Source of the DNA: Candidatus Collierbacteria bacterium
Lineage (GTDB): Bacteria; Patescibacteriota; Microgenomatia; UBA1400; JACPES01
Assembly: GCA_016219325.1 (NCBI GenBank)
Contig: JACRNH010000007.1
Coordinates: 1-58,482, forward strand
Direction of reading: 5' to 3'
Length of the DNA: 58,482 nt
Shown: one piece after another, positions 10,595 through 49,378 of the stretch
Position numbering within the stretch: the first letter of the stretch is position 1
How the letters are laid out: each line of letters begins with the position of its first letter
Translations under genes and position numbers: made by a program
Notes under the pieces: model-generated
The model's database searches: none
Told to the model about the DNA's origin: nothing
What the model saw: only the letters and a program-made list of their open reading frames with translations

Positions 10595-11626
10595 TTAATT
10601 CTTTATCGCCTCTAAAAAGGGGAGAGTTCCATTGGCCAAATAGTACAACATCGCCCCGCCGCCACTGGAAATCCAGTCAATTCCACTTTCCAAACCAAAA
10701 GCTGTTAAAACCGCCTCGGTGTCTCCGCCGCCAACCACGGTGTAAGCTTTCGTTTGATTCATGGCCTTAGCTACAATCTCTGTTCCGGCTGAATGTTTAC
10801 CATCCTCAAACTTTCCCATTGGTCCATTCCAAACCACTGTACCGGCGGTCATAATTTTATCGGCAAACATCTTGGCTGACGCTTCAGTAACATCCATACC
10901 GCTATCGTTTAATTTAGCTGCCTTAATGCAGCCGCCGCCCGGCAAACAAACAGATCTCAGTTTCGTTGGCAATAATCCGCCTATCAGGACCTCGTCCGAC
11001 CGCTTCGCCAGCTTCGGAATTAGGGTTATTTTGGTGTCAACTTTGGCTCCTCCTAGAATAAATATTACCGGTTTCTTCGGATTTTCCAGAACTTTTGATA
11101 AATGGGATATTTCAACTTCAAATCTAAAACCAACTGCAACCCTACAGACTAATTTAGGCACCAAAACCACCGAAGCATGCGAACGATAAGAAGCAAAGGC
11201 ATCAAAGATATAAACGTCCGGAGACAAACGTCGCACAATATTTTGAGCGAAAGTGGGGGAGTTGCCTTCCTCTCCCGGATCGAAACGCAGATTTTCTTCT
11301 ACCTTGATCCCCGCCCCCGGAAATCTGCTCTCAAACCAATCCGCTACTAGCCTTAAACTTAACTCTTCTACCCTCTTTCCGCCAGGTCTGCCCAAGTGGC
11401 CAATTATAGTAATTTTTGCCTGTCTATCAACCAAATATTTAATAGTTGGCAGAGAATTTAACAATCTGGTATCGTCTGCAACTTTTGCCTTTTGCCTTTT
11501 GCCTTTTGCCTTTTTCACTGGCACATCCAAGTCCAGCCTAACCAAGACCTTTTTACCGTTGACGTCAACGTCCGCTATGGTTTTCAATTGCCTATGACTT
11601 TCGGGTTTTCTTGACATTTTGGTCAT
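10595..11626 (-). CDS. pgk: Phosphoglycerate kinase (short form, 343 aa)
   Basis: KKVLVRLDLDVPV...DDTRLLNSLPTIKYL and C-terminal GGGDTEA...ISSGGGAMLYYL motifs. Contains an in-frame hexamer microsatellite. Confidence 0.9.
   Translation of the reverse strand: MTKMSRKPESHRQLKTIADVDVNGKKVLVRLDLDVPVKKAKGKRQKAKVADDTRLLNSLPTIKYLVDRQAKITIIGHLGRPGGKRVEELSLRLVADWFESRFPGAGIKVEENLRFDPGEEGNSPTFAQNIVRRLSPDVYIFDAFASYRSHASVVLVPKLVCRVAVGFRFEVEISHLSKVLENPKKPVIFILGGAKVDTKITLIPKLAKRSDEVLIGGLLPTKLRSVCLPGGGCIKAAKLNDSGMDVTEASAKMFADKIMTAGTVVWNGPMGKFEDGKHSAGTEIVAKAMNQTKAYTVVGGGDTEAVLTAFGLESGIDWISSGGGAMLYYLANGTLPFLEAIKN
11483..11516. repeat. Hexanucleotide microsatellite (TTTTGC/GCAAAA, about 4-5 units) inside pgk
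   Basis: Read directly. Encodes KAKGKRQKAK inside the conserved N-terminal segment of PGK. Confidence 0.9.
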
Positions 11627-11832: not shown

Positions 11833-12402
11833 ATGTTATGGAAAAAAAGCCATTTTCTATCCAAAAAACTGCGGCCGGTCTTTGAAAGCCGCAAAATTAA
11901 AGCTATAGTCGGCGGAAACTTAGCCCTGTCTATATTCTTGGTCAATCTGATGGGCCCGATCGGAGGTCAAACACCGGCAGGGTCCATTGAAGTCACCACC
12001 CTAACCCCTGATACAGTCAAAGTCATTACCGAAACAACCTTCAGAATCCCTTTAGCCGAAAATAACGGTTACTCTCAAGGTTTCTACGATAAACATCCCG
12101 GAGTAGATATCAAATCTAAACTGGGAACCAAGATCTTGGCTGCGGCCCCAGGAACCGTTATTGAGGTTGAACGTAAAAAAATGGGATATGGGCATAAACT
12201 GGTAATCGGGCATTCTGGGCGAATAAGCACGCTTTATGCCCATTTGGACACTATTAATGTTAACGTTGGCGATTATGTAACTAAGGAAACAGTTTTAGGA
12301 ACAGTTGGATTGACAGGCTGGACCACCGGTCCGCATTTACACTTTGAAGTCAGAAATGATTCCGGATACATTAATCCTAAACAGATTTTACCGGAGCTTT
12401 AA
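11833..12402 (+). CDS. M23/LytM-family peptidase with N-terminal membrane anchor
   Basis: HPGVDI (HxxxD) and GWTTGPHLHFEV (HxH) motifs. TM segment near the N-terminus. Confidence 0.85.
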   Translation: MLWKKSHFLSKKLRPVFESRKIKAIVGGNLALSIFLVNLMGPIGGQTPAGSIEVTTLTPDTVKVITETTFRIPLAENNGYSQGFYDKHPGVDIKSKLGTKILAAAPGTVIEVERKKMGYGHKLVIGHSGRISTLYAHLDTINVNVGDYVTKETVLGTVGLTGWTTGPHLHFEVRNDSGYINPKQILPEL

Positions 12403-12417
12403 TTAAGGTACAAGAAA

Positions 12418-12439
12418 GTACGCGCCTTCGGCGCAGTAC
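12418..12439. terminator. GC hairpin between the convergent M23 peptidase and cmk genes
   Basis: GTACGCGCC-TTC-GGCGCAGTAC. No flanking T-run on either strand. Confidence 0.35.
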
Positions 12440-12470
12440 AAAAATGTACAACAAGCTAAGTCTTCTTTCT

Positions 12471-12520
12471 TTTATTTTCTTTTACTTTCTTTTACTTTCT
12501 TGTACTTTCTTGTACTTCAC
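12471..12520. repeat. Five tandem units of about 10 nt (TTTACTTTCT / TGTACTTTCT)
   Basis: Read directly. Overlaps the 3' end of cmk and encodes the KYKKVQESKRK tail. An inverted copy, GTACAAGAAAGTAC, lies at 12407-12420. Confidence 0.85.
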
Positions 12521-18212: not shown

Positions 18213-18629
18213 TTATGATCTCAATTTGGCGATTAATTTTGTTGTTGAATATTCAGGATTATACTTGTTTACCACCCTAAGCTTAACTCCGGCCTTTCGG
18301 CATATTTCTTTTTTATTTTCCATAAACGGGCTATTCCCTGACACCGCATAAATATCCGCTTTTACCGATAGAAGCATTTTCTCATATTCCCGGTTTGAAT
18401 TAAATTCATTCGGCAAGATTATAACTTCGTCAACACATTCCAGGGCCTCAAGCATTTGTTTTCTTTCAGATTGGTTCATAATTGGCCGTTGTGAGCCTTT
18501 AAGTTCTTTAGTCCTGAAATCAGATTCGATACCAACCACCAACTTCCCTCCCAATTTTTTAGCAGCCTGTAAAAAGTTTAAGTGCTCAATATGCAAAAGA
18601 TCAAAAATTCCGGTGGCAAAGACGATCAT
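18213..18629 (-). CDS. Cytidylyltransferase-family protein (TagD/RfaE-II-like)
   Basis: GIFDLLHIEHLNFLQAAKKLG contains the HxGH-type nucleotidyltransferase motif. 138 aa. Confidence 0.75.
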   Translation of the reverse strand: MIVFATGIFDLLHIEHLNFLQAAKKLGGKLVVGIESDFRTKELKGSQRPIMNQSERKQMLEALECVDEVIILPNEFNSNREYEKMLLSVKADIYAVSGNSPFMENKKEICRKAGVKLRVVNKYNPEYSTTKLIAKLRS

Positions 18630-19500
18630 ATTCGGAAAGAATTGTATCAGTCCTATTTACAGGATGAAAGAAAGCAGAATGAATCGAGACGCGCTCGTTG
18701 GTCATTTTGGATTTCATAAACTGAAACTGCAGGTTAAAGGCTAGAAAGTTTAAAAGGCTGAAAAGGTCAAAAGCATGAAAATTATTGGACCTTTTTAACC
18801 TGTTGACCTGCCAACCTTCAAACCTTTCCCATGCGTTCGCCAGATATTTCATCCCCCATCGATTTCCCCACATCATTTTTTCATAAGTTCCGTCTTTATT
18901 AACAACCGGTTTCATTTGAGCCAATTCGTGAGCGGTATAGAGATTGCGCTGGTCAACCGGAATCGCTAAGGCCGACTTGTCAAGCCAAAGATTTAGACAA
19001 ACGGCGTTTTTTAATTCTGAATTTTGAATACTGAATACTGAATTGGAATGCCGGCGTCGTTTGAAAAAAATGGAAACTAAGATCGTCGCCAGCGGACGGA
19101 CAATCCATAGACGATTTTTTGACGTCACCACCATCAAGTCAATATCATCGTTTTCATCGGTATTTTCCATCGCCAGCGCTCCGGTTACCGCCACCATTTT
19201 TATCCAAGGAATTATGGATATCGTTTTTGCGGCCCTGCGGGCAATTGTCAATTTCTTTGCGCTTATTTTTTGCCGGCGGAGGCGGAGAGAAACAAGGGCT
19301 AAGGGTTGAGGGCTAAGGGTTGAGGGTAGAAAAAAATCGTTCCATTGTGAGATTTTTTTAGCTTTGAGCAAATTTTCAATTTCTTTTTTTAATGCCTTTA
19401 CCGAAACCTGTTTATCGGAAATTAAATAATGGTGAAGTTCTTCAATATTTAAGGGATAATCAAAAATAGAATGATACAACAGGGTGGAAAGGACGCTCAC
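18601..19500 (-). CDS. Hypothetical protein with an NTase-like motif
   Basis: VAVTGALAMENTDENDDIDLMVV resembles G(S/A)...DxD of Pol-beta-type NTases. Contains two low-complexity word repeats. Confidence 0.45.
   Translation of the reverse strand: MSVLSTLLYHSIFDYPLNIEELHHYLISDKQVSVKALKKEIENLLKAKKISQWNDFFLPSTLSPQPLALVSLRLRRQKISAKKLTIARRAAKTISIIPWIKMVAVTGALAMENTDENDDIDLMVVTSKNRLWIVRPLATILVSIFFKRRRHSNSVFSIQNSELKNAVCLNLWLDKSALAIPVDQRNLYTAHELAQMKPVVNKDGTYEKMMWGNRWGMKYLANAWERFEGWQVNRLKRSNNFHAFDLFSLLNFLAFNLQFQFMKSKMTNERVSIHSAFFHPVNRTDTILSEYDRLCHRNF
19015..19046. repeat. Low-complexity word repeat (GAATACT units) inside a CDS
   Basis: Read directly. Encodes SVFSIQNSELK in the 18601-19500 ORF. Confidence 0.8.
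19296..19327. repeat. Tandem 14-nt repeat GGGCTAAGGGTTGA (x2.3) inside a CDS
   Basis: Read directly. Encodes LSPQPLALVS in the 18601-19500 ORF. Confidence 0.85.
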
Positions 19501-24330: not shown

Positions 24331-26424
24331 ATGGAATCTAAATACGATCATCAAAAATTTGAAAGGGAAATTTATAGAAAGTGGGAAGATCCGGGGGCAT
24401 TCAAGCCGGGAAATGGCAAAAAACCGTTTTGTATTATCATGCCGCCGCCAAACGCAAATGACCCATTGCACGTTGGACACGCGATGTTTGTAGCCATAGA
24501 AGATATTTTAATCCGTTATCAGAGGATGTTGGGAAGGAAAACATTATGGCTGCCGGGAACCGACCACGCCGGAATTGAAACTCAATATGTATTTGAAAAA
24601 AAATTGGCCAAAGAAGGTAAAAGCCGGTTTGATTTTGACCGGGAAACTTTATATAAAATGATCTGGAATTATGTTCAAGATAATTCAAATGTGGCCATAG
24701 ATCAAATCAAAAGATTGGGCGCCAGCGCGGATTGGTCAAGAAAAAAATTTACCCTTGATCCGGAAATCGTCGATTTTGTCCTGGATACTTTTATTAAATT
24801 ACATCAGGATGGATTGATTTATCGGGATCTAAAGTTAGTTAATTACTGCGTCAAATGCGGAACGGCATTTTCAAATTTGGAAGTGGGGCATGAAGAGAGA
24901 AAAACCCCTCTTTACTATCTAAAATATGGTCCCTTTACCCTAGCGACAGTCAGGCCTGAAACCAAATTTGGGGATACGGCAATAGCTGTGCATCCGGACG
25001 ACAAACGATATAAAAAATATGTTGGGCAAGAAATAGGGGCCGAGGGGTTGTTGGGCAAATTTAAAATTAAGGTAATTGCCGACAGTTCTGTCGATCCCAA
25101 ATTTGGCACTGGAGCCGTAAAAGTTACCCCATACCACGACCACAATGATTTCGCTATCTGGAAAAGGCATCCGGAACTGCCAAAGCCTGCTCAGGTAATA
25201 GGTCAATCCGGAAAATTAAATCAAAACGCAGGCAAATATTCCGGCCTGAGAGTTATGAAGGCGCGAGAGGTAATTGTTGAAGATTTGAAAAGGCTAGGAT
25301 TATTAGTAAAAGTAGATGAAAATTATCATAATTCAGTCGGGGTCTGCTATAGATGCGGCGCGGTTATAGAGCCGCTGCCAATGAAACAATGGTTTTTAAG
25401 AGTAAAACCTTTAACCGAAAAAGCCTTGGAGGCTCTGTCAAAAAAGCAAGTCAGGGTGTATGGGTCCGGACACGACAAAATTTTAAAGCACTGGCTGGAA
25501 AACCTCGAAGATTGGAATATCAGCCGGCAAATTGTCTGGGGAATCAGAATTCCTGTTTGGTATCAAAAAAATTCAACCGAATATGTTGTGGCCAAAGAAT
25601 CGCCCGGAAAAAATTTCGTTCAGGAAACCGACACTTTTGATACCTGGTTTTCGTCAAGCCAATGGCCGGTGGTTACTTTGAAAACTAATCAACCGAAAGA
25701 TTTTGAAACTTTTTATCCGACAGATGTAACGGAAACCGGATATGACATTCTCCCTTTTTGGGTAATGAGGATGTTAATGATGGGAATTTATTTAACGGGC
25801 GAGGTCCCGTTTAAAAAAGTTTATTTGCACGGACTAATCAGGGATGAGAAGGGACAAAAGATGAGCAAATCCAAGGGAAATGTAATTAATCCATTGGTGA
25901 TGATAGATAAATACGGCGCGGATGCTTTAAGAATGGCCCTTGTTATCCGCTCAACTCCGGGGCAGGACAAAGGCATGGGCGAAGGAGACGTTCGGGGAAT
26001 GCGGAATTTTTCCAATAAAATCTGGAACGCAGCGCGATATATCAATCTCAAATCTCAAAACTCAAATCTCAAAACCACAATTCAAAACCCAAAACCGGAT
26101 AGGGAGTTTTATAAAAGATTAAGCCAGACAGCGTCATTGGCAACAAAGCATCTAAGCAACTATAGGATTGGACTAGCAGCTGAAACTGTTTATAACGAAT
26201 TCTGGCACTGGTTTTGCGATGAAGCGATTGAAAAAAATAAAAGACAGGAAATTTCCGACAAAGCAATTTTTGAAGGCCTGGTTACTTTTCTCAAGCTCCT
26301 CCACCCTTTTATGCCTTTTGTGACAGAAGCGGCGTGGGGAGAAATCAAAAAACAGAAAACAAAGAACAATGAACAGAGAACAATGATGGAAGAAATGTTG
26401 ATCAGCGCAGAATGGCCGAAATAA
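24331..26424 (+). CDS. valS: Valine--tRNA ligase (short form, 697 aa)
   Basis: PPPNANDPLHVGHA (HIGH) and KMSKSKGN (KMSKS). It ends soon after the anticodon-binding helices, so no C-terminal coiled coil is apparent. Confidence 0.92.
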   Translation: MESKYDHQKFEREIYRKWEDPGAFKPGNGKKPFCIIMPPPNANDPLHVGHAMFVAIEDILIRYQRMLGRKTLWLPGTDHAGIETQYVFEKKLAKEGKSRFDFDRETLYKMIWNYVQDNSNVAIDQIKRLGASADWSRKKFTLDPEIVDFVLDTFIKLHQDGLIYRDLKLVNYCVKCGTAFSNLEVGHEERKTPLYYLKYGPFTLATVRPETKFGDTAIAVHPDDKRYKKYVGQEIGAEGLLGKFKIKVIADSSVDPKFGTGAVKVTPYHDHNDFAIWKRHPELPKPAQVIGQSGKLNQNAGKYSGLRVMKAREVIVEDLKRLGLLVKVDENYHNSVGVCYRCGAVIEPLPMKQWFLRVKPLTEKALEALSKKQVRVYGSGHDKILKHWLENLEDWNISRQIVWGIRIPVWYQKNSTEYVVAKESPGKNFVQETDTFDTWFSSSQWPVVTLKTNQPKDFETFYPTDVTETGYDILPFWVMRMLMMGIYLTGEVPFKKVYLHGLIRDEKGQKMSKSKGNVINPLVMIDKYGADALRMALVIRSTPGQDKGMGEGDVRGMRNFSNKIWNAARYINLKSQNSNLKTTIQNPKPDREFYKRLSQTASLATKHLSNYRIGLAAETVYNEFWHWFCDEAIEKNKRQEISDKAIFEGLVTFLKLLHPFMPFVTEAAWGEIKKQKTKNNEQRTMMEEMLISAEWPK
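26044..26096 (+). repeat. CTCAAA(A/T)CTCAAA word repeat, in frame inside valS
   Basis: CTCAAATCTCAAAACTCAAATCTCAAAACCACAATTCAAAACCCAAAAC encodes NLKSQNSNLKTTIQNPKP. Confidence 0.9.
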
Positions 26425-26759
26425 AAATAATTATTCATCAAAACCGTTTAGCAGCTTTACTTGTCCTCCTACTGACCATCATATTTATGACGTCTTTGGC
26501 AACTATTTTCAAAGAAAAAAGAATTGCGCAATTATGGGAAACCCGCCGCGATAAAGAAGACAAATTAGAAAAATTAGTGGAACTGTCAATCCAATATCCC
26601 GATTATCGCGATCTTTTATACCGTCTGGCTATCTCTCAATCAGAATTGGGAAATGACGAAGCTGCCAAAGAGGCCTTCGCCCGGGCCAGATATTTGGACC
26701 CCAACAATGAAACCTTGATTAAAATTGCCGATAGTCTGGGTATTTCCCTATCTAATTAA
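26412..26759 (+). CDS. Membrane-anchored TPR-like protein
   Basis: N-terminal TM, then YRLAISQSELGNDEAAKEAFARARYLDPNN, a TPR-type helix pair. Confidence 0.5.
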   Translation: MAEIKIIIHQNRLAALLVLLLTIIFMTSLATIFKEKRIAQLWETRRDKEDKLEKLVELSIQYPDYRDLLYRLAISQSELGNDEAAKEAFARARYLDPNNETLIKIADSLGISLSN

Positions 26760-27149
26760 GAATTTTTTAGGGTAAAATTTGTCAAACGATACAATTCCAT
26801 CCAGACCATATTTATCTATAAATGCTAAATTCGCACAGTCCACAAAAGATGTTCCCTTCTTGGCCTGTTTCAAAAATATGTTCCATGCCAATTTTTCAAG
26901 AGCATCATCCAGAGTTATTTCCTGATCAATAACTCTGTCTCTCTTCAAATAAAAGTCTTTGGCCTCTTCCTGCCCTACTTTCATACTTATCACCGTAGCC
27001 GTCTCTTGGGCCACAAGGTTCAAAATCATAAAAATATCACCTTGGTTGTGAAGCCTTCTGGTTATTTCTTTAGCCTTCTGATGGGTTGAGTCGTCAAATT
27101 TATACAAGGCCACTAACACATTTGAATCCAAGGCTATCTTCCTGCCCAT
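26748..27149 (-). CDS. vapC: PIN-domain toxin (VapC family)
   Basis: IALDSNVLVAL... with PIN acidic residues. 133 aa, overlaps the upstream RHH antitoxin gene. Confidence 0.8.
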   Translation of the reverse strand: MGRKIALDSNVLVALYKFDDSTHQKAKEITRRLHNQGDIFMILNLVAQETATVISMKVGQEEAKDFYLKRDRVIDQEITLDDALEKLAWNIFLKQAKKGTSFVDCANLAFIDKYGLDGIVSFDKFYPKKFLIR

Positions 27150-27388
27150 TTTGGGTTACCCTTTCCATATAAATAATAATCAATCCTTGAAGACAAATTT
27201 TTTGGCCCGCCTTTTGCCGCCCCGATAAACCCTTCCCCCCATTTCTTAACTCTCTTCATTTTTTTATTTTTTATTACCGTTTTTACTCCTTCTCTAACCA
27301 ATTGAGAAAAATTCATTCCTTCTTGTCTCATCAAGAAGGCCATGTCCTTGTGCAAATCGTCCGGAATATATACTTGCGTTCTAATCAT
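27134..27388 (-). CDS. vapB: RHH (CopG/VapB-like) antitoxin
   Basis: MIRTQVYIPDDLHKDMAFLMRQEGMNFSQLVREGV is a ribbon-helix-helix. Confidence 0.7.
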   Translation of the reverse strand: MIRTQVYIPDDLHKDMAFLMRQEGMNFSQLVREGVKTVIKNKKMKRVKKWGEGFIGAAKGGPKNLSSRIDYYLYGKGNPKWAGR

Positions 27389-27394
27389 GCTTTA

Positions 27395-27423
27395 ATTGTA
27401 TGTTGTATGTTGTATGTTGTCAA
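27395..27423 (-). promoter_or_regulatory. Sigma70-type promoter TTGACA-N17-TACAAT, 6 nt before the vapB ATG
   Basis: Minus strand: -35 at 27418-27423, -10 at 27395-27400. The 17-nt spacer is the heptamer repeat ACATACA (plus strand TGTATGT x3.4). Confidence 0.55.
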
Positions 27424-28541
27424 GACGGAAAATTCAGGCCCGGCTGACGGTCAATGGCGGCGATTTCGTTTAAGCTCCGGGCAACCTCTCCTCTGTTAAA
27501 TGAGAATTGGGCTGCCATGCCTATCATGGCGGCATTGTCGCCGCTAAATTTCTTGGGGGCGGCGTAAAATCGACCTCCCGATGAACGGACCAGCGCTCCG
27601 GCTCTGCGGCGCAACTGATTGTTGGCCGATACGCCGCCGGTTAAAAAAACTGTTTTTAATCCTGTAGCCGTCATCGCTCTTTTCAGTTTCAAAAGCAAAG
27701 CATCTATCACGGTTTTCTGAAATGAAGCGCAGAAGTTGCAAATCTCTTGTTTTGACAGCTCTTTTGTTTGCCTCAAGCTGACTTTACTGATACTGTGGGA
27801 CTTATAAAGCGTCTGGATCGCGGCGGTTTTTAATCCGGAAAAACTAAAGTTTAAATTTTCCCGCGGACTTCTTTCCATCGGCACCGGTAATTTATACTTT
27901 TCCGGATCTCCGTCTTTGGCAAAACGCTCCAGAACCGGTCCGGCCGGATAACCAAGTCCCAATTCCCGGCCAATTTTATCAATGCACTCGCCAGCAGCAT
28001 CATCCAACGTGTGCCCAATCAAAAAATGTTGCATTATTAGTTTTGAGTTTTGAGATTTGAGATTTGAGCTTACCAGTTCCGTGTGACCGCCGGAGACGAT
28101 GAGACTTAAAAAATGATCAGAAAGATTAAAAAGGTTAAAAGGCTCAAAATTGTTGATGAATGGCTGACAAGATTTTCTTTGTAAGAATAAACTCGCGATG
28201 TGGCCTTCAAGATGATTTACCGGAATTAATGGCTTTTTTTGTTCCAAAGCTAATTTTTTCGCAAATTCGATCCCTGCTTCCAATGCCGGGGCCAAGCCCG
28301 GTCCCACCGTCACCGCAATGGCATTAATTTCGCCAATCGTTAACCGTGAATCGTTAAGCACCCTAGAAACAATCTCCGGCAATCGGTCTTCGTGGGCCCG
28401 GCGGGCAATGCTGGGGACAACTCCGCCCCACCTGAAATGATCTTTAATCTGGCTCCAAACAACATTTGAGAGAAGCTTGTTCCCTTCAACCACGGCCGCA
28501 GAGGTTTCGTCGCAAGAAGTTTCGATTGCCAAAACAATCAC
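27420..28541 (-). CDS. tsaD: tRNA N6-adenosine threonylcarbamoyltransferase TsaD (Kae1/Gcp)
   Basis: LAIETSCDETSAAV...VNHLEGH...SGGHTEL motifs. 373 aa. Confidence 0.93.
   Translation of the reverse strand: MIVLAIETSCDETSAAVVEGNKLLSNVVWSQIKDHFRWGGVVPSIARRAHEDRLPEIVSRVLNDSRLTIGEINAIAVTVGPGLAPALEAGIEFAKKLALEQKKPLIPVNHLEGHIASLFLQRKSCQPFINNFEPFNLFNLSDHFLSLIVSGGHTELVSSNLKSQNSKLIMQHFLIGHTLDDAAGECIDKIGRELGLGYPAGPVLERFAKDGDPEKYKLPVPMERSPRENLNFSFSGLKTAAIQTLYKSHSISKVSLRQTKELSKQEICNFCASFQKTVIDALLLKLKRAMTATGLKTVFLTGGVSANNQLRRRAGALVRSSGGRFYAAPKKFSGDNAAMIGMAAQFSFNRGEVARSLNEIAAIDRQPGLNFPS
28039..28069 (-). repeat. CTCAAATCTCAAAACTCAAA word repeat, in frame inside tsaD
   Basis: In the sense orientation it reads GCTCAAATCTCAAATCTCAAAACTCAAAACT and encodes SNLKSQNSKL. 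Confidence 0.9.
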
Positions 28542-29611
28542 TTAACCCCCCAACTTATTATTCTTTCATTATCCGATTTTCCATATTTAATTTTTATCCA
28601 AATAATAACTGCTTCGTCGTTTTGACGGCGGATAACGTTAACAACCTTATCCGCCCACTCAATCGCAATTACAGACTTGTCAGAGATTATTTTTTTAAAG
28701 CCTAAATCTTCCAACTCTTTCTCTGTCTCAATTCTCCAAACATCGATATGGAGTAAAGAGTAGGGAGTAGAGAGTAATGAGTAATGATTCATCAAATTGA
28801 AAGTTGGAGAAGTAACCGCGGTATCAATTCCCATAGCTCTGGCCAAACCTTTGACAAATTGAGTTTTGCCTGCCCCAAGCTGGCCTTCGAGAGCAAAAAC
28901 AATCGCTCTCTTGCCGGCAAACTGTTCATATTTTTGCCACATCTCTTTCCCAAAATTTTGAGTATTTTCCTCGGAACGGCTAAGGATTTTATTTTCTTTA
29001 GTCAATTTAATTTTTCCAATCCTCAAGGCCACCGGATCATCCATTGTGGTATCAATAACCGTTGAAGGTTCTCTTTTTGGAAGTCTGCCGGCGTCAACGA
29101 TTAGATCAATCAATTTCTTCTTTTTATCTGATATATTATTTAAAATATCTGAGATCTGATATGGCTTTTTCTTGTAAGCCTCGTTTGCTGAAGTGGCAGT
29201 AATCGGCCGCCCTAGCGATTTAACAATTTGTTTAACCAGCGGATACGACGACATCCTAATTCCAAGTGATCCGGTCTCCGACTCTACCCCCGCCGCGGTA
29301 AAATGTTTTCCTTTAGAAATTACCGTCAGCGGTCCAGGCAAAAATTGGCGGTAAAGTTTCTTGGCGGTGGTATTTAATTCCGCGTATTTTTCTGCCATTT
29401 TCTGATCTGCCACAGCCACAGAATAAGGCTTGCCAAAAGGTCTGGATTTATATTCGCTTAATTTTTTAACCGCTTCGGGGTTTGTAGCGTCGGCGCCAAT
29501 CCCATACACGGTTTCCGTAGGATAGATAAGAAGGCCGCCGGTCTGAAGGACGGAAACGGCTTGGGGGATAATCTTGGATTGAGGGATTTTTTTAAGTGAA
29601 ATAACTTTCAT
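28538..29611 (-). CDS. Fused TsaC/Sua5 (YrdC domain) - TsaE protein
   Basis: N-terminal half LIYPTETVYGIGADA...KSRPFGKPYSV (YrdC). C-terminal half ALEGQLGAGKTQFVKGLA...VTSPTFNL (TsaE P-loop). Start trimmed to the ATG at 29611 to avoid overlap with the HIT gene. Confidence 0.85.
   Translation of the reverse strand: MKVISLKKIPQSKIIPQAVSVLQTGGLLIYPTETVYGIGADATNPEAVKKLSEYKSRPFGKPYSVAVADQKMAEKYAELNTTAKKLYRQFLPGPLTVISKGKHFTAAGVESETGSLGIRMSSYPLVKQIVKSLGRPITATSANEAYKKKPYQISDILNNISDKKKKLIDLIVDAGRLPKREPSTVIDTTMDDPVALRIGKIKLTKENKILSRSEENTQNFGKEMWQKYEQFAGKRAIVFALEGQLGAGKTQFVKGLARAMGIDTAVTSPTFNLMNHYSLLSTPYSLLHIDVWRIETEKELEDLGFKKIISDKSVIAIEWADKVVNVIRRQNDEAVIIWIKIKYGKSDNERIISWGVK
28751..28787. repeat. GAGTAAAGAGTA...GAGTAATGAGTAATGA word repeat inside the tsaE part
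   Basis: Read directly. Encodes HYSLLSTPYSLL on the minus strand. The 12-mer GAGTAAAGAGTA is also present at 41581-41592. Confidence 0.85.
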
Positions 29612-29643
29612 AAAGATTATAAAAATTATAACCGATATGAAAG

Positions 29644-30036
29644 TTATAAATTGGAGCGGATCAACGAGGAAATTTCTGAAAGTTGTTGGCTTGTAAAGGA
29701 AAGAGGTTTTGACCAATCGGGGTGTTCTTTGTTTCTTGATTCCATTGGTAAGACGTGAACATGGGCATGAGGAACTGCTAATCCCAGTGTTCTAATCTGA
29801 ACGTAAGCGGAATTCAGGGCCTTTTTGGAGGCAAGGCTAACTTTCTTGACGACTTCAAAAAGTTTTCCAACCTTGGGAACATCATAAAAAAATTCGGAGT
29901 GTTTCTTTGGGATAACTAGGCTGTGGCCTTTTACTACTGGTCGGATATCTAAAAAAGCCAAGAAATTATCGTCTTCGAAGACTTTGTATGAGGGGATTTT
30001 GGCTGCGGCGATCAGGCAAAAAATACATTGTTGCAT
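29644..30036 (-). CDS. HIT-family (histidine triad) protein
   Basis: CIFCLI...GHSLVIPKKH...VPHAHVHVLP (HxHxHxx motif). Confidence 0.9.
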   Translation of the reverse strand: MQQCIFCLIAAAKIPSYKVFEDDNFLAFLDIRPVVKGHSLVIPKKHSEFFYDVPKVGKLFEVVKKVSLASKKALNSAYVQIRTLGLAVPHAHVHVLPMESRNKEHPDWSKPLSFTSQQLSEISSLIRSNL

Positions 30037-36592: not shown

Positions 36593-36931
36593 TTAATTTT
36601 TAATTATTAAATGGCCAATTTCTTTTTTTAGGTCCTCAACGGTTGCGTCAATCGTCCGGCGGTTGGGGAGAATAACCAAATGAATGCCAAGTGTCTCCGG
36701 TAAAATATTTTGCAGGGCTGCCCGCAGCCGCCGTTTTAATTTATTCCTAACCACCGCCTTATTTGACAATTTTTTTGAAACTATTATTCCTGCTTTCGGC
36801 AATAGGTTTTGAGTTTTGACTTTTGAGTTTTGGGCTATCAATATCCCCATCAACTTCCCCGACGCCATTTTCCCGTCTTTCATTACGTCTTTGAATTCCT
36901 GCCTGGAAAGCCTGAACTTTTTCGGAAGCAT
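36593..36931 (-). CDS. rnpA: RNase P protein component
   Basis: [12 protein letters not shown]...[12 protein letters not shown] (RNR motif). 112 aa. Confidence 0.9.
36805..36833 (-). repeat. CAAAACTCAAAAGTCAAAACTCAAAAC word repeat, in frame inside rnpA
   Basis: In the sense orientation it encodes [11 protein letters not shown]. Confidence 0.9.
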
Positions 36932-36961: not shown

Positions 36962-38491
36962 CCTGAGTTTCCCATTTTTGTAAATTGATTTACACTTGAG
37001 CCTAAATTTGGTTAAAATTAGGTGTGAAACCGCACTACGCTAGTATCCGTCGGGTAAAAACTAAATCTGGAGCTGTTGCTATTCAAGTAGGTCAATATCA
37101 AGGAAAAAGATTTAAACTTCTTAAACATCTTGGTTCGGCTAAAGAATCAACAAGAATCACAGAACTTGTGGAGTTGGCCTCAAAATATATTGAAACAAAT
37201 TCTCCTCAGTTATCTTTAAACTTTAGTCCTCACTCAGAGGAAGTGTTGTTTAAACGAGGTATTCAGGCTCAAAAAAGCAGACTGACAACAGCCTACGACT
37301 ATCTGGAAAAGACATACCAAAAGCTTGGTTTTAATCAATTAAACAGTGAGATACTCAAACATTTTTGTTTAATCAGAGTCTTGGAACCAGCCTCCAAAAT
37401 TAAATCACTATACCTGCTACAAAAATATTTTAGCTTGAACTACAAAAAGACCACAGTATTTAGAAAACTGCACGAATTAATCAGTCTCAAAGAAAAAGTG
37501 GTGGGTTTGGCTATTTCGTATGCCAAAGAAAATCTGGAGTTTGATTTCTCTCTGGTTTTTTATGATGTCACCACTTTGTATTTTGAAACCCATCAAAGTG
37601 ATGATTTTAGGCTGAATGGTTTTTCCAAAGACAACAAGATCAATCAACCACAAATTCTAGTAGGGCTAATGGTTAATCACACTGGCTTCCCAGTTTATTA
37701 CGATATTTTTCCAGGTAATACCTTTGAGGGTCATACTATTATCCCCGTAATTACCAGTATTAAAGCCAAATACAACATTAGCAGATTAACAGTGGTTGCT
37801 GATGCGGGAATGTTATCTGAAGAAAATTTATCAGCTCTGCAAAACAATCAAATTGACTATATTGTGGGTGCCAGAATCAAGAAATTAAAGCTGGATCAGA
37901 TTAAACTGGTTGCTAAGGAATTAAATCAGGTTGACGGCAAAGTAATCAGACGAGACAGTGTCCTTTACGACTATTCCAGCAAAAGAGCCAAAAAGGACAA
38001 ATCTGATAATGACAAACAACTACAAAAAGCTGAATATCTTATTACTCACCCTGCAAAGGCTTTAAAACGCTCTAGTTTTATTGCCTCACCTAAAAACCAG
38101 GACTTATTATTAAATCTGGAAACTATTGAGAAATACCGGCTGCTGGAAGGTGTTAAGGGATACAAAACCAATATCACTGATATTCCAGACCAATTATTGA
38201 TTAACAGATACAAAGACCTCTGGCATGTAGAACAGTCATTTAGAATTGCCAAATCAGACTTGCAGGCCAGACCAATTTATCACAGGAAAAAAGACTCCAT
38301 TGAATATCATTTATTGATGTCTTTATGGCTCTTTGTCTCACTAAAGTCATTGAACAGGAAAAGCAAACTACAATTCAAAAAGTAGTGGATGACCTTAAAG
38401 ACGTTTGGACAGTCACTCTAAAAGACGAGATCTCTGGCAACACCATGGATTTGATTATCAATACAAAACCGCACTAATTGGGAAACTCAGG
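36962..38491 (+). mobile_element. IS1634-family (IS4-superfamily) insertion sequence, 1530 bp
   Basis: 13-bp perfect terminal inverted repeats CCTGAGTTTCCCA (36962-36974 and the reverse complement of 38479-38491), 22-bp flanking direct repeats, and a single DDE transposase gene. Confidence 0.85.
37024..38385 (+). CDS. IS1634-family DDE transposase with a frameshifted C-terminus
   Basis: The N-terminus RRVKTKSGAVAIQVGQYQGKRFKLLKHLGSA is typical of IS1634-type transposases. DDE region: FYDVTTLYFE, VVADAGMLSEEN, LWHVEQSFRIAKSDL. After about 38310 the expected tail (FIDVFMALCLTKVIEQEKQTTIQKVVDDLKDVW...NTKPH, stop at 38477) is in another frame. Confidence 0.8.
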   Translation: MKPHYASIRRVKTKSGAVAIQVGQYQGKRFKLLKHLGSAKESTRITELVELASKYIETNSPQLSLNFSPHSEEVLFKRGIQAQKSRLTTAYDYLEKTYQKLGFNQLNSEILKHFCLIRVLEPASKIKSLYLLQKYFSLNYKKTTVFRKLHELISLKEKVVGLAISYAKENLEFDFSLVFYDVTTLYFETHQSDDFRLNGFSKDNKINQPQILVGLMVNHTGFPVYYDIFPGNTFEGHTIIPVITSIKAKYNISRLTVVADAGMLSEENLSALQNNQIDYIVGARIKKLKLDQIKLVAKELNQVDGKVIRRDSVLYDYSSKRAKKDKSDNDKQLQKAEYLITHPAKALKRSSFIASPKNQDLLLNLETIEKYRLLEGVKGYKTNITDIPDQLLINRYKDLWHVEQSFRIAKSDLQARPIYHRKKDSIEYHLLMSLWLFVSLKSLNRKSKLQFKK

Positions 38492-41342: not shown

Positions 41343-41648
41343 GTTATCCACAACTCGTGGAAAACTATGTGGATAACCGGTGAATTAGTCGCGGAAAACT
41401 AGGAGAATATGTTGAAAAGAATCAGGATGTTTAAGAAGTTAACAATTTGTCCACTTATTTATAAACAAGTGTTGATAATCAAAAAGAGCAATATAAAGAG
41501 TATTTTTGAGGGTTCTCGACAAATCCGCATTCCTATATACTAGGACTAATTAATATAAGAAAAACGAAATAGAAAATAATGAGTAAAGAGTAATGAGTAA
41601 TGAAATGAAAATCATTACTTTCTACTTTCTACTCATTACTCATTAATA
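41343..41648. promoter_or_regulatory. Candidate oriC (DnaA-box cluster plus AT-rich stretch) between dnaA and dnaN
   Basis: Perfect TTATCCACA at 41344-41352 and its inverted copy TGTGGATAA at 41368-41376. Near-boxes at 41356-41364, 41447-41455 and 41470-41478. AT-rich run at 41521-41580. Confidence 0.65.
41577..41645. repeat. Imperfect hairpin built from GAGTAATGA / GTAGAAAGTA words, upstream of dnaN
   Basis: Left arm GAGTAAAGAGTAATGAGTAATGA, right arm TCATTACTTTCTACTTTCTACTCATTACTCATTA. Confidence 0.8.
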
Positions 41649-42731
41649 ATGAAAATATCGATTTTGCAGGAAAATCTATCTAAGGCGGCTTTATCAATTT
41701 CTAAAATTGTTTCATCAAAGCCGCAACTCCCAATTTTATCAAATATCCTAATAAAAGCAGAGAAAGGGAAAATTGTATTTTTGGCTACAGACCTGTCAAT
41801 TTCAATGGGCCTAACTGTTGGGGGCAAAATTGAAGAAGACGGAGAGGTCTCTGTCCCGGCCAAAGAATTTACGGCCCTGATTTCCCAATTGCCGGCAGGG
41901 AAAATTGATTTGTTTTCAGAGAAGGACTCCTTGTCGATTAAATCCGGCTCATTTAAGGCCCGGTTGGTCGGATTATCCGGCGGAGAGTTTCCCAGGGTTG
42001 ATCCGCCGTCAGGCAAAGGCCTTGAAATAAAAGCCGGAGACCTGTCTTTATTATTAAGGAGGACTCTATTCGTAACAGCCAAAGACGATTCCCGGCCGAT
42101 ATTGACCGGAATTAAATTAACCGGGCCGGAGAAGGGGGAAGTAAAAGCCATGGCGACAGACGGTTACAGGCTTAGTGTTGTAACTGTCCCCGCGGGCGGA
42201 TCCATTGACGCGGCGGCCGTTATCCCGGCAAAATTTTTGTCCGAAGCCGATAAATTTTCCGGGGATGCCGGGATTGGATTAAGTATTAACAAATCAGGCG
42301 AAGCCGGGGTCGCCGGAGAAGACGGTTGGCTTTCGGGGAGGACTCTGGCAGGAGAATTCCCCCCGGCCGAGAAAATAATCCCTGAGGAGTTTGAGTTGGA
42401 AATTTCCGTAAACCGCTCCGATCTGGAGAGGGCGGTTAAAATTGCGGTAATTTTTGCCCGGAGCGCTGCCAATATAATTAAATGGGAAATTAAGTCAGGG
42501 AAATTAAAAGTTTCGGCCAACTCTCCGCAAGTCGGAGAAAACGAGACTGTCCTGGATGTTGAAGGCAAGGGAGAGGGGGAGATCGCTTTCAACGGCCGCT
42601 ATCTTTTGGACTACCTGGGATCGACGGACGAAGAGAGCGTAAATTTCGACATGATAAATTCCTTAAAGCCCGGAGTCTTTAAGGCAAAAAATTATCTCCA
42701 TGTGATTATGCCGGTGAGGGTGCAAAAATAA
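41649..42731 (+). CDS. dnaN: DNA polymerase III beta sliding clamp
   Basis: Position after dnaA, 360 aa, three-domain clamp pattern (ATDGYRLS...). Confidence 0.92.
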   Translation: MKISILQENLSKAALSISKIVSSKPQLPILSNILIKAEKGKIVFLATDLSISMGLTVGGKIEEDGEVSVPAKEFTALISQLPAGKIDLFSEKDSLSIKSGSFKARLVGLSGGEFPRVDPPSGKGLEIKAGDLSLLLRRTLFVTAKDDSRPILTGIKLTGPEKGEVKAMATDGYRLSVVTVPAGGSIDAAAVIPAKFLSEADKFSGDAGIGLSINKSGEAGVAGEDGWLSGRTLAGEFPPAEKIIPEEFELEISVNRSDLERAVKIAVIFARSAANIIKWEIKSGKLKVSANSPQVGENETVLDVEGKGEGEIAFNGRYLLDYLGSTDEESVNFDMINSLKPGVFKAKNYLHVIMPVRVQK

Positions 42732-42732
42732 C

Positions 42733-42808
42733 GAGTAATGAATAGAAAGCAATGAGCAATGACTAACGTGTCCATTATTTTCTACTTTCTACTTTCTACT
42801 CATTATTT
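42733..42808. repeat. Imperfect hairpin of the same word family between the convergent dnaN and virB4-like genes
   Basis: GAGTAATGAATAGAAAGCAATGAGCAATGA ... CCATTATTTTCTACTTTCTACTTTCTACTCATTATT. Confidence 0.8.
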
Positions 42809-45800
42809 ATTTTTGGCTTCGTCTCAAAGATCGAAGTAAACTCGATTGACGGTTGGACGGCCGCCCCCGGAACCAGCGGCTTTTCATTGTTCTCTGTCTC
42901 TTGTTTCTTGTTTTCTGCTTTCTGCTCTCTACTTTCTACTTTCTGCGCCTTATTCACATCCACCTCAATCTCATTCAGGGCCAAGGGCTCGGACTCAACA
43001 GACTTTTGTGGTTTCCAATAATTGCTTTCCGGAGAAATCTTTTGTTCTCCAGTATCCATTCCGGCCTTAATGTCTAAGATCTCCTGTGGTTTGCTGGTAA
43101 TTAATTTATGCTCTTCTGGGCTGGCAATAACTTTGATGGCCACGTGATTTTGGCCGGCAAAGAAAAGCCCTTCTCCGATTTCTGATGCCATTAGCAATTG
43201 CTTTTCGCCGGCGGACAAATAAAAGGCTTCCTGTAGAGAATCGACGGCAGCAGCTGATTGTTTCATTAGGATTTGGATGCTGGAGTTGGTAACAATAGCT
43301 TTCCCATAATCAGAATGGAGGAAATCTTCAACGTCTTGAGTAATTGTTGTTAGCCCTAAATAATATTTCCGGGCCCGTTTGGCCATTGAGTATAGAAACA
43401 GGGCAGAGTCCTGATTTTTCATTAAATACCAGGCTTCGTCAACGATTAGCAGCCGGCGCTTTAATTGAGATTTAACTTTGGTCCAGATGAAGTCCAGAAT
43501 CATAAACATGGCTACGGGTCTAAGCTCATCTTCCAGATTTTTAATTCCGAAAACGATAAAATCAGCAGTCAGATTGACGTTGGTTTTTTGGTCTACCAAT
43601 CCGCGGAAACTGCCTTTGACAAATTTTTCCAGCCGGGCCGCCAGATTCGCGGCCTCCGGCGTTTCCATTCCGGCTAGGGCTTTATACAGATCTTCTAAAA
43701 GCGGAGGTTCGTTATTAAAAGTCTCCGGATTCGGGCTGATGCCATTGGCCTTATAAGCTGCGATTAAAGCCCTGTCTAAAATCGCTTCTTGGCTGGCGTC
43801 CATTGTCCCGAGCATTATTTTCATTAAAGCGTGGAGAGACAGCAGTTTTTGAGATAATTCGTTTTCGGAAGCGACGCCGGAAGATCCTCGAGCATAAGAG
43901 GGGAGGTCAAAAGGATTGATTTTAGCGGTTGAGGCAAAACTGAAATCAATATATTGGCCATTGACGGCATCTGACATCCGGTGATATTCGTCTTCCGGAT
44001 CAATCACGATAACTTCGGTGTCAAACATTAGAGAACGTAGAGCCTCAAGTTTGACGAAATAAGAATTATGGACAAACATTCCGCCATGACCGGCCAAGAA
44101 AACTCCATTGTCAACCTGTAGGTCGTAGACATATTTTTCATGGTGTTTTATTTTCTCAACAGAAACGATTGGATCCCAGAATAGGTTGGAATTAGCGAGT
44201 AGTTTTAATTGACTCAATTTTTCTTTGGCATGACGGATTTTCAGCTGGGTAGAACGATATTTTTGAGAGATATATCTGGCCGCTTTAAACAATGTCTGAT
44301 ATTTTGGATTTTTCGATTTTTCTAAAACGACAGCGTTCCATAATGATTTATCGTATTGTCGCATGGATTGGCCTTGTTGCTTGAAGGCCTCGTAAAGAAC
44401 GGAAGACAATAGCGACGCGGTTAGCGTTTTCCCTGAAACCGTTTGGTAGACAAAGAGGGCGTTTTGAGTCAATGGCGGATGTAAAAATCGTTTAATATTG
44501 CGCCAGGAGTCGCCGAGTTTTTCCCAAAGTAGGCGGTTAAATTGTTTGCTTTTTGATCCCAAACGGACAAGTCGGGAAACAGAGGGTAGTTCTCTTAATA
44601 GTTTTATGTATGGCGCGAGAGAGCGAAGCTGGTTGAGGCGAATCTCGCACAAAGAAATGGCATGTAAAAGTTGCTTTCTAGACGGATTATAGTTTCCATT
44701 TTTGATGTCAATAATGACTTGAGGAGTTTTGATTTCGGAAGTGGGATAGATAGATTTGGATAAATGTTTAAAAATTGGCTGCAGGCCGGGGACAGTATCG
44801 ACGTTAGTGTTACCGTTCCCGGTCCTCTGGAGTAAGAAAGCAAGTTTTTGGTTTTTGGTTTTAGTCAGGAAGCCGATTTTATCGGCAAATTTTTGAATTT
44901 GATCTTTTCCGGAAATGGTTATCTGAAAATAGGTGTTTTTGGTTTGTTTTTTGGTGTTGATGGCCGCTTTTCTCTTGGAATGGATTCTGGCGATAATTCC
45001 AAATCTTAACAAGATATAGGCCATATCAGAGGCAAGGTCTTTAGATTTAGTAGTGGCGGCGACTTCATGATTTTCAACTCCGCCGTCGCCCTCATAATAC
45101 GCGCGGAGATATTGGGCGATTTGATCGTTAGAGAGTGAAAAAATTCTTGGAGGAATTCGTTTTTCGCCGGATTTACCGCCGGCGCCATCGGCAATTACTT
45201 TTGTCGCGAAATCCTTCCCAGAAGAAATGCCGATCCGTTTTCCTCCAGAGCGGAGAAGATAATGTTTAATTTTAAGCGCGTTAAAAGAGTCTTTTATAAT
45301 CGAGAGAACAGCCGGATCTGTATTGAAAATTCGGACGAATTTTTGATAAATAAGCCCTTCGCTGGTAATTAACCCAAGTAAAGTTAGATACTCTTGAGAA
45401 AGAGAAAAATTGGATGCAGGCTTAGGAATAAAACGAGGGAGGGGAACGCATTCGCCAGCGGCGACAGCTTCGGCTCGTATGGTGCGGATTTTCCCGTTTC
45501 TCATAATAATCATTTGGTGATCCGGAGTTACGGTAATTTCGCGGCCGCTTTTCGTGCTGATTTTGTAAATTTTCCGGCGTTTATTGAAAGTTTTTCTAGC
45601 TGCTATCTCAACGTTTGCCCAGATCGGTTTTTGATTTTGATCGTAGGTGAGGACTTGAAGTTTAGGGTTGACGACTCCATCAGACTCGTTGCTAAATGTT
45701 ACGACTTTTTTTTGAGACATCAGATTATTGATAAGCTGCCCGATTTCGCAGATTTTGACCTCACCAGTATTGTGTCTAACGATAACTTTTGACTGATACA

Positions 45801-47315: not shown

Positions 47316-47320
47316 TTTAT

Positions 47321-47397
47321 AATGAGTAATGAGTAGGAAGTAGAAAGTAATGAAATTATTTTGCATTACTCATTATTTTCTACTCATTGTTTTCTGT
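47321..47397. repeat. Imperfect hairpin of the GAGTAATGA / GTAGAAAGTA word family
   Basis: AATGAGTAATGAGTAGGAAGTAGAAAGTAATGA - loop - ATTACTCATTATTTTCTACTCATTGTTTTCTG. Lies between the PrgI-like and 234-aa genes. Confidence 0.8.
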
Positions 47398-48694: not shown

Positions 48695-48964
48695 ATGACT
48701 TTTGTTGTCAAAGAAGTTGTTTGGGACGATTTTAATATCGCGCACATTGGAGAGTACGATGTTAGCGTTGATGAAGTAGAGGAGGTTTGCAACGGAAAAG
48801 TTGAGGCATATTTGGGCCACTCGGATCGGTTTATGATTATCGGCAAAACTGTGGCCGGTAGGATTTTATCAATCGTATTGGCGCAAAAATCAAAAGGGGT
48901 AGTTTATCCGGTAACCGCCAGAGATGCCAGCCGGAAAGAAAGGGGGTGGATTAAAAATGACTAA
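48695..48964 (+). CDS. BrnT-like (DUF497) toxin
   Basis: VVWDDFNIAHIGEYDVSVDEVEEV...RILSIVL...VYPVTARDASRKER fits the DUF497 pattern. Start trimmed to the ATG at 48695. Confidence 0.6.
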   Translation: MTFVVKEVVWDDFNIAHIGEYDVSVDEVEEVCNGKVEAYLGHSDRFMIIGKTVAGRILSIVLAQKSKGVVYPVTARDASRKERGWIKND

Positions 48965-49217
48965 AAAACATTTACCAAAATTTAAATCTAACCAAGAAGA
49001 AGCCCGATTTTGGGACAGTCATGACATGACCGATTATTTTGACCGGAACAAAAAAGTAGTGCTGGATTTTTCCGGCGCCAAAAAAAAGAAAGAGAGTATT
49101 TTAACCGTCAGATTACAGCCGGAGATAAAAATGAGGCTGGGGGCGGTAGCGGAAGAAATGGGAATTCAGACCTCAACTTTGGCCAGAATGTGGTTGGTGG
49201 AGAAATTGAGAGGTTAG
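48957..49217 (+). CDS. BrnA-like CopG/RHH antitoxin
   Basis: FKSNQEEARFWDSHDMTDYFD...ILTVRLQPEIKMRLGAVAEEMGIQTSTLARMWLVEKL. GGGGGTGG SD-like motif upstream. Overlaps the toxin stop by 8 nt. Confidence 0.6.
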   Translation: MTKKHLPKFKSNQEEARFWDSHDMTDYFDRNKKVVLDFSGAKKKKESILTVRLQPEIKMRLGAVAEEMGIQTSTLARMWLVEKLRG

Positions 49218-49366: not shown

Positions 49367-49378
49367 TAATGATTTTTG

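Follow-up and report, generated by a model that had tools for sequence, protein, structure and literature searches.

We identified short tandem arrays of 7-nt units inside the valS, tsaD and rnpA genes of a 58,482-nt stretch of DNA from a Candidatus Collierbacteria bacterium (GenBank contig JACRNH010000007.1; this stretch, which we call the window, is the sole part of the genome analysed). Our interpretation, to which we assign a probability of about 0.7, is that the three copies are heptanucleotide simple-sequence repeats (SSRs) lying within coding sequence, of a class resembling the short tandemly repeated repetitive (STRR) sequences of cyanobacteria. That the arrays originate at the DNA level follows directly from their 7-nt period; that replication slippage is the step behind them is what we infer. 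Heptanucleotide SSRs as such are already known, and what is new is their occurrence in a Patescibacteria lineage and in a coding context.

Heptamer arrays in valS, tsaD and rnpA

The open reading frames (ORFs) that host the three arrays were assigned by Pfam to ValRS (24331-26424, + strand), TsaD (27420-28541, - strand) and RnpA (36593-36931, - strand). In valS the array occupies 26044-26096 on the + strand, where AAT is followed by CTCAAAT CTCAAAA CTCAAAT CTCAAAA before the run decays to CCACAAT TCAAAAC CCAAAAC (4.3 copies, peptide NLKSQNSNLKTTIQNPKP). The tsaD array, at 28039-28069 on the - strand, consists of two CTCAAAT and two CTCAAAA units (3.9 copies, peptide SSNLKSQNSKL), and the rnpA array, at 36805-36833 on the - strand, reads CCCAAAA CTCAAAA GTCAAAA CTCAAAA (3.9 copies), the copy numbers being taken from Tandem Repeats Finder and a custom period scan. 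An earlier note on this DNA had described these runs as in frame and in sense orientation in all three genes, with at least 20 nt shared between valS and tsaD and read in the same frame as NLKSQNS. The runs are present in the sequence as described, and the common exact stretch of valS and tsaD is in fact 23 nt (AATCTCAAATCTCAAAACTCAAA), with the same frame and the same NLKSQNS peptide. Identity of the rnpA copy, with its CTCAAAA and GTCAAAA units, to the valS and tsaD copies is limited to 12-14 nt. All between-copy identity (23, 14 and 12 nt) is confined to the repeat unit, the flanks of the valS, tsaD and rnpA arrays are unrelated, and the T and A unit variants differ in number and order among the three copies, which are 27-53 nt long and all in frame. 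When we checked these copies we found no hairpin, defined ends, common flanks or target-site duplication, and the coding arrays were without a fold (z = +0.30 for valS, +1.17 for tsaD, +0.44 for rnpA and -0.2 for a further coding array). The Logan contig L081, an independent assembly (our L-numbers are labels for contigs or loci of relatives or metagenomes), was 100% identical over window positions 26047-29998, including the tsaD array and an array in tsaE, and we therefore rejected the possibility that the arrays are assembly artefacts.

A search of the window with the pattern CTCAAAWCTCAAA, allowing at most one mismatch, returned 10 matches where 0.41 were expected, and none of 100 dinucleotide-preserving shuffles reached 10; the count of the word that the earlier note had suggested as a check, here made within the window, thus gave a clear excess. 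The excess is also wider than this word. Perfect arrays of at least 2.5 copies numbered seven at period 7 against none expected, while our period scan of the window showed no excess at periods 2-6, 8, 9 and 11-15 and only one array at period 10. Tandem Repeats Finder reported many arrays at periods 7 and 14, and a mismatch-tolerant scan recovered about 12 arrays with many different units, seven of them inside well-supported genes; the unit families include CTCAAAW, GCAAAAG, GAGTAAW/TACTCAT, TTTCTAC, CAACATA, ATTCAGT and others. Arrays between genes are over-represented relative to the ~10% intergenic share of the window. The word shared by valS, tsaD and rnpA is one case within this broader, window-wide set of period-7 arrays.

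Because 7 is not a multiple of 3 and the repeat runs out of phase with the codons, the periodicity arises in the DNA, which bears out the proposal of the earlier note that the runs originate at the DNA level and not by protein convergence, as does the presence of unrelated heptamer arrays in the same loops of orthologues (see below). Within 21 nt a tandem 7-nt array passes through all three reading frames, giving a peptide with a 7-residue period. Neither CTCAAAT nor CTCAAAA has a stop in any sense frame, whereas the antisense strand has TGA, so the sense orientation of the three copies is forced by selection and is therefore uninformative about the mechanism of insertion; the shared orientation is accounted for by the antisense stop and not by a directional mechanism of insertion. 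On either strand taken alone, ~62-69% of heptamers are free of stops. The same argument from stops and orientation was made earlier for TAACTGA repeats (PMC4679880).

We then place the arrays on the proteins. Compared with the solved structure 8iey, TsaD is longer by exactly 7 residues, with the alignment gap opposite the array. The same is true of PGK, which is exactly 7 residues longer than T. maritima 1vpe with the gap opposite its own array (GCAAAAG, 4.7 copies, 11482-11514, - strand, perfect over 33 nt, peptide KKAKGKRQKAK), and RnpA is 4 residues longer than 36uk_B, again with the gap opposite the array. The ValRS loop is only ~1 residue longer than that of T. thermophilus 1gax, with no net insertion. 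The description of the runs as inserted therefore holds for tsaD and rnpA and does not hold for valS. A strict quantum of 21 nt (7 residues) at every site was considered and rejected, as it holds for TsaD and PGK and fails for RnpA (+4), TsaE (a 6-residue difference among relatives) and ValRS (~+1). The valS array falls within a linker that follows the KMSKS region and joins the KIWNAARY helix to the anticodon-binding domain; among 80 Microgenomates ValRS sequences this linker is hypervariable, with lengths from 0 to ~70 residues. In the AlphaFold model of TsaD (mean predicted local distance difference test score 89.8) the array residues 157-167 fall at the distal end of a beta-hairpin (E154-164/E167-176). 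The arrays thus occupy lineage-variable surface loops, the outcome that the earlier note had looked for in proposing an alignment of orthologues. A second variable loop of TsaD (28110-28140, - strand, residues ~125-145, QPFINNFEPFNLFNLSDH) has a period-9 DNA repeat, and in relatives the corresponding loop has 3-residue repeats of the NFPNLPNFPNF type, showing that not every low-complexity loop is derived from heptamers.

The same loops in relatives and the word in metagenomes

Among species-representative genomes the nearest ValRS genes were those of metagenome-assembled Microgenomates Patescibacteria (Beckwith-, Ames-, Chisholm- and Collierbacteria), at no more than 67% identity. Closer relatives (L082, L083, L084 and L205-L208) came from protein searches and exact-protein look-ups, and none of the relatives searched was closer than ~79% TsaD identity. 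Related Microgenomates loci totalling 1.45 Mb contained 24 perfect arrays at period 7, compared with a single one at period 8 and four at period 9; the same loci held 31 arrays at period 5 and 13 at period 6, these being counts without a shuffle expectation. The period-7 arrays were concentrated in a few genomes (L009, L080, L010 and L008), and 8 of 51 arrays in the Microgenomates loci lay within one mismatch of CTCAAAA, several of them orthologous.

At the rnpA loop the flanking codons are nearly identical in DNA and the array units differ, with six units in six lineages: CTCAAAA/GTCAAAA in the window, AAGGAAR (five copies) in L205, AAGGAAG (2.5 copies, in a shorter loop) in L208, AAAAGTT in L206, CATCATC (four copies) in L082 and AATTCAG (4.5 copies) in L207. 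The five copies in L205 and the 2.5 in L208 of an AAGGAAR-type unit amount to a copy-number difference. An alignment of 37 RnpA sequences contained the loop peptides RKKEEGRRKKE, RTKDEGRRTKE and RAKGEGRRAKE, which on back-translation would correspond to arrays of AGGAAGA, AGGACGA and AGGGCGA (the DNA itself was checked for L205 and L208 only). The variant base occurs in every copy of these back-translated arrays, which indicates that the units are homogenised within each array.

At the tsaD loop the window, L083 and L205 have homologous NTCAAAW arrays of equal length, from which it follows that this array was inherited vertically from an ancestor at ~79% protein identity. In L082 the same loop holds 3.5 copies of AGGGCCA followed by an inverted TTAGCC-type run (L082 10477-10560), and in L084 it holds 4.5 copies of GAATKTC followed by four of ATTCGTC (L084 6776-6860). 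In both loops the second, inverted array is partly complementary to the first; the pair is translated in frame and could form a hairpin, and in architecture it is nearer to the Rickettsia palindromic elements (RPEs) than the window copies are.

Units in the valS loop were AGGAGTC (four copies) in L205, AGAGAGC/AGAGAAC in L083 and AAGCACG (four copies) in L010. L080 has 3.9 copies of CAGAGAA in valS, but their place relative to the loop is unconfirmed, the loop alignment showing almost no L080 sequence there. At the pgk site L080 has a different heptamer-type peptide (EKPKIKNQKSKIT) of the same length. The window also encodes a Sua5-TsaE fusion whose TsaE half contains a degenerate TACTCNN array (28758-28787, - strand, peptide HYSLLSTPYSLLH), and this array is conserved in L080 and L082, the form in L083 being 6 residues shorter. 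In L205 and L082 the three sites in valS, tsaD and rnpA hold three unrelated units, so the sharing of a unit between sites is not the rule. The orthologous sites that we compared were never empty: other arrays were present, and array lengths and unit order varied between copies. Orthologues at 65-80% identity had unrelated peptides in the same loops, and in every relative examined the array was in frame.

Four of 13 independent contig ends of relatives (L081-L084, all Logan assemblies) lie inside heptamer arrays, compared with an array-like share of ~0.4% among 28-nt windows. L081 ends exactly at window position 26047, the start of the valS array, and none of the 25-mers and 31-mers of that array recurs within the window. 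Contig ends at arrays hint at polymorphism in the population.

An exact scan of metagenome contigs for CTCAAAWCTCAAAWCTCAAA found at least 120 stretches, with a GC content of 0.26 to 0.67 among the matches listed. Likewise among the matches listed, the array stood in a sense frame free of stops for at least 150 codons in 74 of 122 (phases 28, 27 and 19), and Pfam hosts included LeuRS, GatB, ValRS, topoisomerase I (TopA), MutL and molybdopterin oxidoreductase, on unrelated contigs with GC contents of 0.38-0.67. Other heptamer arrays, frequently arranged in inverted pairs, were densely packed on many of the metagenome contigs with the word. A count in viral contigs gave 76 stretches for the word, against 38, 35 and 40 for three composition-matched, stop-free control heptamer arrays; as the controls are only ~2-fold rarer, the word itself is not special, and we gave little further weight to the idea that it is. 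Two metagenome contigs of GC 0.67 (L129 and L178) carry A/T-rich CTCAAAA arrays together with other heptamer arrays, often in inverted pairs, one array being in frame in a molybdopterin oxidoreductase gene. In two others (L136 and L142, GC 0.38 and 0.46) two different LeuRS genes have an ISNLKSQISN array at the same position, just after an ...APEH motif.

Proposed mechanism, alternatives and known repeat classes

We propose that short arrays would be created, expanded, contracted and homogenised by a process acting on the DNA, most likely replication slippage or the misalignment of 7-nt units, and that selection would filter those arising in ORFs. An array of three or more units is read in all frames, and only the stop-free strand (CTCAAAW in sense) would persist; only net length changes divisible by 3 would be kept, the smallest whole-unit step being 21 nt or 7 residues; and only tolerant surface loops would accept arrays, such as the tip of the TsaD beta-hairpin, the linker that precedes the anticodon-binding domain of ValRS, the RnpA loop and a loop in the PGK N-domain. 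To judge from the different units at the same loops between conserved flanks, and from unit variants present in every copy of an array, the unit sequence may be renewed when arrays repeatedly shrink to one or two units and grow again. The product peptide (LKSQNSN/LKTQNSK), hydrophilic and 7-residue-periodic, is probably neutral loop filler. The unit would be common to valS, tsaD and rnpA since NTCAAAW is a commonly tolerated A-rich unit, to which old, inherited arrays in tsaD and probably rnpA would add, and under the slippage interpretation no dedicated element copied an array between the three genes. Among the three mechanisms that the earlier note had offered, its slippage-prone seed comes closest to this interpretation, and its mini-insertion finds no support. 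The presence of the same 23-nt string in two essential genes would then be explained by a simple rule, in which reading in all frames leaves arrays on stop-free strands and at loop positions as survivors. Part of the lineage-specific loop insertions typical of proteins of the Candidate Phyla Radiation (CPR) can, as the arrays show, stem from simple-sequence repeats, and not from selection on protein function. Comparisons of orthologous sites provide a data set on heptamer preference and on array turnover in genes intolerant of frameshifts; in practical terms, the arrays break short-read assemblies and may be mistaken for mobile elements or conserved motifs.

Several points weigh against the slippage interpretation. 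Slippage has been inferred and not observed directly, and stepwise slippage cannot easily explain the full replacement of a unit, because gaining or losing one or two units shifts the reading frame of an essential gene; replacement would take steps of 21 nt, a collapse with later regrowth, or conversion by an array elsewhere. Length differences among relatives are not always 21 nt (6 residues in TsaE, 4-5 in RnpA), A-rich CTCAAAA arrays in contigs of 60-67% GC are awkward for purely local seeding, the bias toward CTCAAAA in Microgenomates loci (8 of 51) is only partly explained, and the preference for a 7-nt unit is left without explanation. We also considered a bolder reading, improbable in our estimate, in which fixed loops of essential proteins in this Patescibacteria clade, and in other phyla judging by the metagenome matches, are cassette-like sites at which an active process working on the DNA erases heptamer arrays time and again and writes new unit sequences in their place, be it by slippage in 21-nt steps, by conversion with intergenic arrays as donors or through a dedicated activity that adds repeats. 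If this were true, heptamer arrays would generally supply streamlined genomes with lineage-specific loop insertions, a source not recognised before. We regard the cassette-like turnover of arrays at fixed loops of essential proteins as the most interesting aspect of these observations.

Copying between loci has to be weighed against local slippage. A very small mobile or templated element, similar to an RPE or to the small dispersed repeats known from Nostoc, could have copied the CTCAAAW array, for example from an older tsaD array to valS and rnpA, or ectopic gene conversion could have done so. Such copying would account for the exact 23-nt identity of valS and tsaD in the same frame, for the occurrence of the same unit families at several loci in one genome, for A-rich arrays inside high-GC contigs and for sites where the unit was fully replaced and the loop length stayed roughly constant, and it would agree with the window valS array being younger than the tsaD array, as it must be given that the valS loops of L083 and L205 hold different units. 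However, the three copies lack a hairpin, conserved termini, common flanks and a target-site duplication, their T/A unit variants differ in number and order, and the identity of rnpA to the other two is 12-14 nt only. The related AAAAGTT array at the rnpA site of L206 suggests inheritance, three unrelated units occupy the three sites in L205 and L082, and control heptamer arrays are nearly as frequent as the word, so that we hold copying of this kind to be unlikely. An insertion like that of an RPE, the best-known analogue according to the earlier note, was rejected, and one like that of a miniature inverted-repeat transposable element is unlikely: the copies are only 27-53 nt long, without a hairpin (z values above) and without shared flanks or ends, and the tsaD array was inherited vertically. 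Gene conversion between copies is possible. The earlier note had further suggested that the opposed valS and tsaD copies could support an inversion; we rejected this, as it would swap the 3' parts of two essential genes, giving two in-frame chimeras, and L083 and L205 keep the orientation of the window.

A dedicated process, for example one in which a polymerase, a primase or a reverse transcriptase adds units of 7 nt where DNA breaks or forks stall, might instead write the arrays repeatedly at fragile sites, the loops being mutational hotspots. The specificity for period 7 across unrelated phyla and GC contents would fit this, as would the frequent pairing of arrays with an inverted copy, the different units at exactly the same sites and the 4 of 13 contig ends inside arrays (against ~0.4% of 28-nt windows). 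We rate it lower than copying between loci, however, as no candidate enzyme was identified in the window, recurrence at the same sites is equally well explained by selection that permits arrays in only a few loops, and contig ends at repeats are a common effect of assembly. We consider two further explanations very improbable. If the NLKSQNS-type peptide were a selected protein motif, convergent in three enzymes, its hydrophilic nature and its position on the surface would fit, and the conservation of the TsaE array peptide HYSLLSTPYSLLH in the window, L080 and L082 might be cited in support; but the unrelated peptides in the same loops of 65-80% identical orthologues already contradict it, the nucleotide period is 7 and not 3 or 21, the copies share identical nucleotides and not synonymous codons, and arrays of the same type are also non-coding. 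If the arrays were contingency loci that switch genes on and off by frameshift (phase variation), the unit length, which like that of classical phase-variable SSRs cannot be divided by 3, and the hint of polymorphism from contig breaks at arrays would both be in keeping. The hosts valS, tsaD, rnpA and pgk are, however, single-copy essential genes in which an OFF state is lethal, the array is in frame in every relative examined, and the arrays have only 3-5 units. With essential hosts and every orthologue in frame, the arrays are not plausible phase switches.

Among known repeat classes, the cyanobacterial STRR sequences of Calothrix and Nostoc are families of heptamer units arranged in tandem at many loci, and in the strict sense they belong to heterocystous cyanobacteria and have G/C-rich units such as CCCCAGT. 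The arrays described here resemble them in forming heptamer families at many loci, and STRR-like arrays, frequently in inverted pairs, are dense on the metagenome contigs that have the word; unlike strict STRR sequences, the arrays described here have a Microgenomates host, A/T-rich units that are not of the STRR1-3 type, and coding copies. RPEs are palindromes of ~100-150 bp with a family consensus. They share with the window arrays the presence of repeated DNA in frame in essential genes, at surface positions and with the fold kept, but the window copies are tandem arrays of 27-53 nt without a hairpin or defined ends.

As Mrazek et al. (2007) are reported in PMC4679880 and PMC4692102, heptanucleotides are the most abundant class of long SSR in prokaryotes, and polymerase slippage was the hypothesis for their origin; the idea of a polymerase footprint behind the 7-nt preference is likewise a hypothesis attributed to Mrazek 2007. 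To judge from the account in these two papers, our arrays are like the prokaryotic long heptanucleotide SSRs in having tandem 7-nt units, an excess at period 7, many units per genome and a patchy distribution among genomes, and also in the variation of copy number and sequence between relatives at one locus (the rnpA, tsaD, valS and pgk loops). The known cases, in the same account, are mainly intergenic, whereas here 7 of ~12 arrays are genic and in frame, mostly in single-copy housekeeping genes (valS, tsaD, tsaE, rnpA and pgk) of Patescibacteria, with units replaced at orthologous loops. The TAACTGA repeats of Beggiatoaceae, cyanobacteria and Bacteroidetes have one dominant unit, lie mostly just upstream of starts and have a proposed regulatory role (MacGregor 2015, PMC4679880). 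The similarity to our arrays lies in the 2-6 direct heptamer copies, in one strand having stops and the other encoding a 7-residue repeat, in the location of some in ORFs and in an unexplained phylogenetic spread (PMC4679880); the window arrays differ in their many units, in showing no preference for 5' untranslated regions and in their location in loops of essential enzymes. The GGGAATC and GGGGAYT heptamers of Xanthomonas and Nostoc are G-rich, quadruplex-forming and intergenic (Rehm 2015, PMC4692102). They too sometimes form convergent inverted pairs and vary in length and sequence between close relatives at one intergenic site (PMC4692102), but the window arrays are A/T-rich and largely coding. 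Among the papers that we searched, none reported heptamer repeats in Patescibacteria/CPR.

Other arrays and features of the window

The earlier note had suspected a fourth gene with the same word. A conserved hypothetical gene that resembles nucleotidyltransferases (18601-19500) does contain a repeat run at 19013-19046 (- strand, peptide NSVFSIQNSELK), but the unit of this run is ATTCAGT/ATTCAAA on the coding strand and not the shared word. Like the loops described above, this one, which follows FFKRRxP, is hypervariable and repeat-like in 29 homologues. A mixed AGAAAGT/AGAAAGC/AAGAAAC array (42899-42944, - strand, peptide QKVESREQKAENKKQE) lies near the C-terminus of a TraG/VirD4-like ATPase, and a weaker period-7/14 run of AGAAAAC AAAAAAC AAAGAAC AATGAAC (26340-26386, + strand, peptide KKQKTKNNEQRTMM) lies near that of ValRS. 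The ValRS is short (697 residues); its anticodon-binding domain reaches residue 696 and the ORF ends shortly after.

Unlike the coding arrays, the intergenic inverted pairs form strong predicted hairpins. The dnaA-dnaN intergenic region has a pair at 41577-41645 with arms of GAGTAAW and TACTTTC/TACTCAT (RNA fold of -24.8 kcal/mol, z = -6.3), and the region between the convergent dnaN and traG-like genes has another at 42730-42800, with arms of GAGTAAT/GAGCAAT and three TTTCTAC units (fold z = -3.0). A third pair (TAATGAG.../TACTCAT...) lies at 47320-47395, where two type IV secretion genes meet (hairpin of -26.1 kcal/mol, z = -5.6). A perfect, non-coding array of 3.6 CAACATA copies at 27396-27420 (- strand) begins at the tsaD stop codon; it is identical and perfect at the tsaD stop in L082 (11143-11167), where TsaD identity is 76%, and is absent at this stop in L205 and L083.

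The sole non-heptamer array past the perfect-repeat threshold is a period-10 array of CTTTCTTTTA (5.3 copies, 12465-12517) at the 3' end of a cytidylate kinase gene, which pairs with an inverted copy at 12398-12421. A 101-bp perfect tandem duplication (2.0 copies, 100% identity, 49165-49367) overlaps the 3' end of a 97-residue ORF (48924-49217, + strand) upstream of an ORF at 49379-50425 (- strand), and may be either of recent origin or an artefact of assembly.

The fused Sua5/TsaC and TsaE occupy one ORF (28538-29716, - strand), and the fusion is conserved in relatives. Between a TPR gene and tsaD the window has a PIN-domain gene and an 84-residue ORF (26748-27388, - strand), likely a toxin-antitoxin pair, which is absent from this place in L083 and L205. 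A DDE_Tnp_1 transposase gene (insertion sequence element, 37024-38385, + strand) lies between rnpA and dnaA, and in syntenic L205 a PemK toxin gene and other genes stand in its place. The cumulative GC-skew minimum at ~36-40 kb adjoins the transposase and likely marks the replication origin. The TraG/VirD4-like P-loop ATPase gene (42796-46614, - strand) is split by an intein with a LAGLIDADG homing-endonuclease domain and is followed by PrgI-like and other type IV secretion genes; syntenic L205 has the same intein-split TraG-like architecture.

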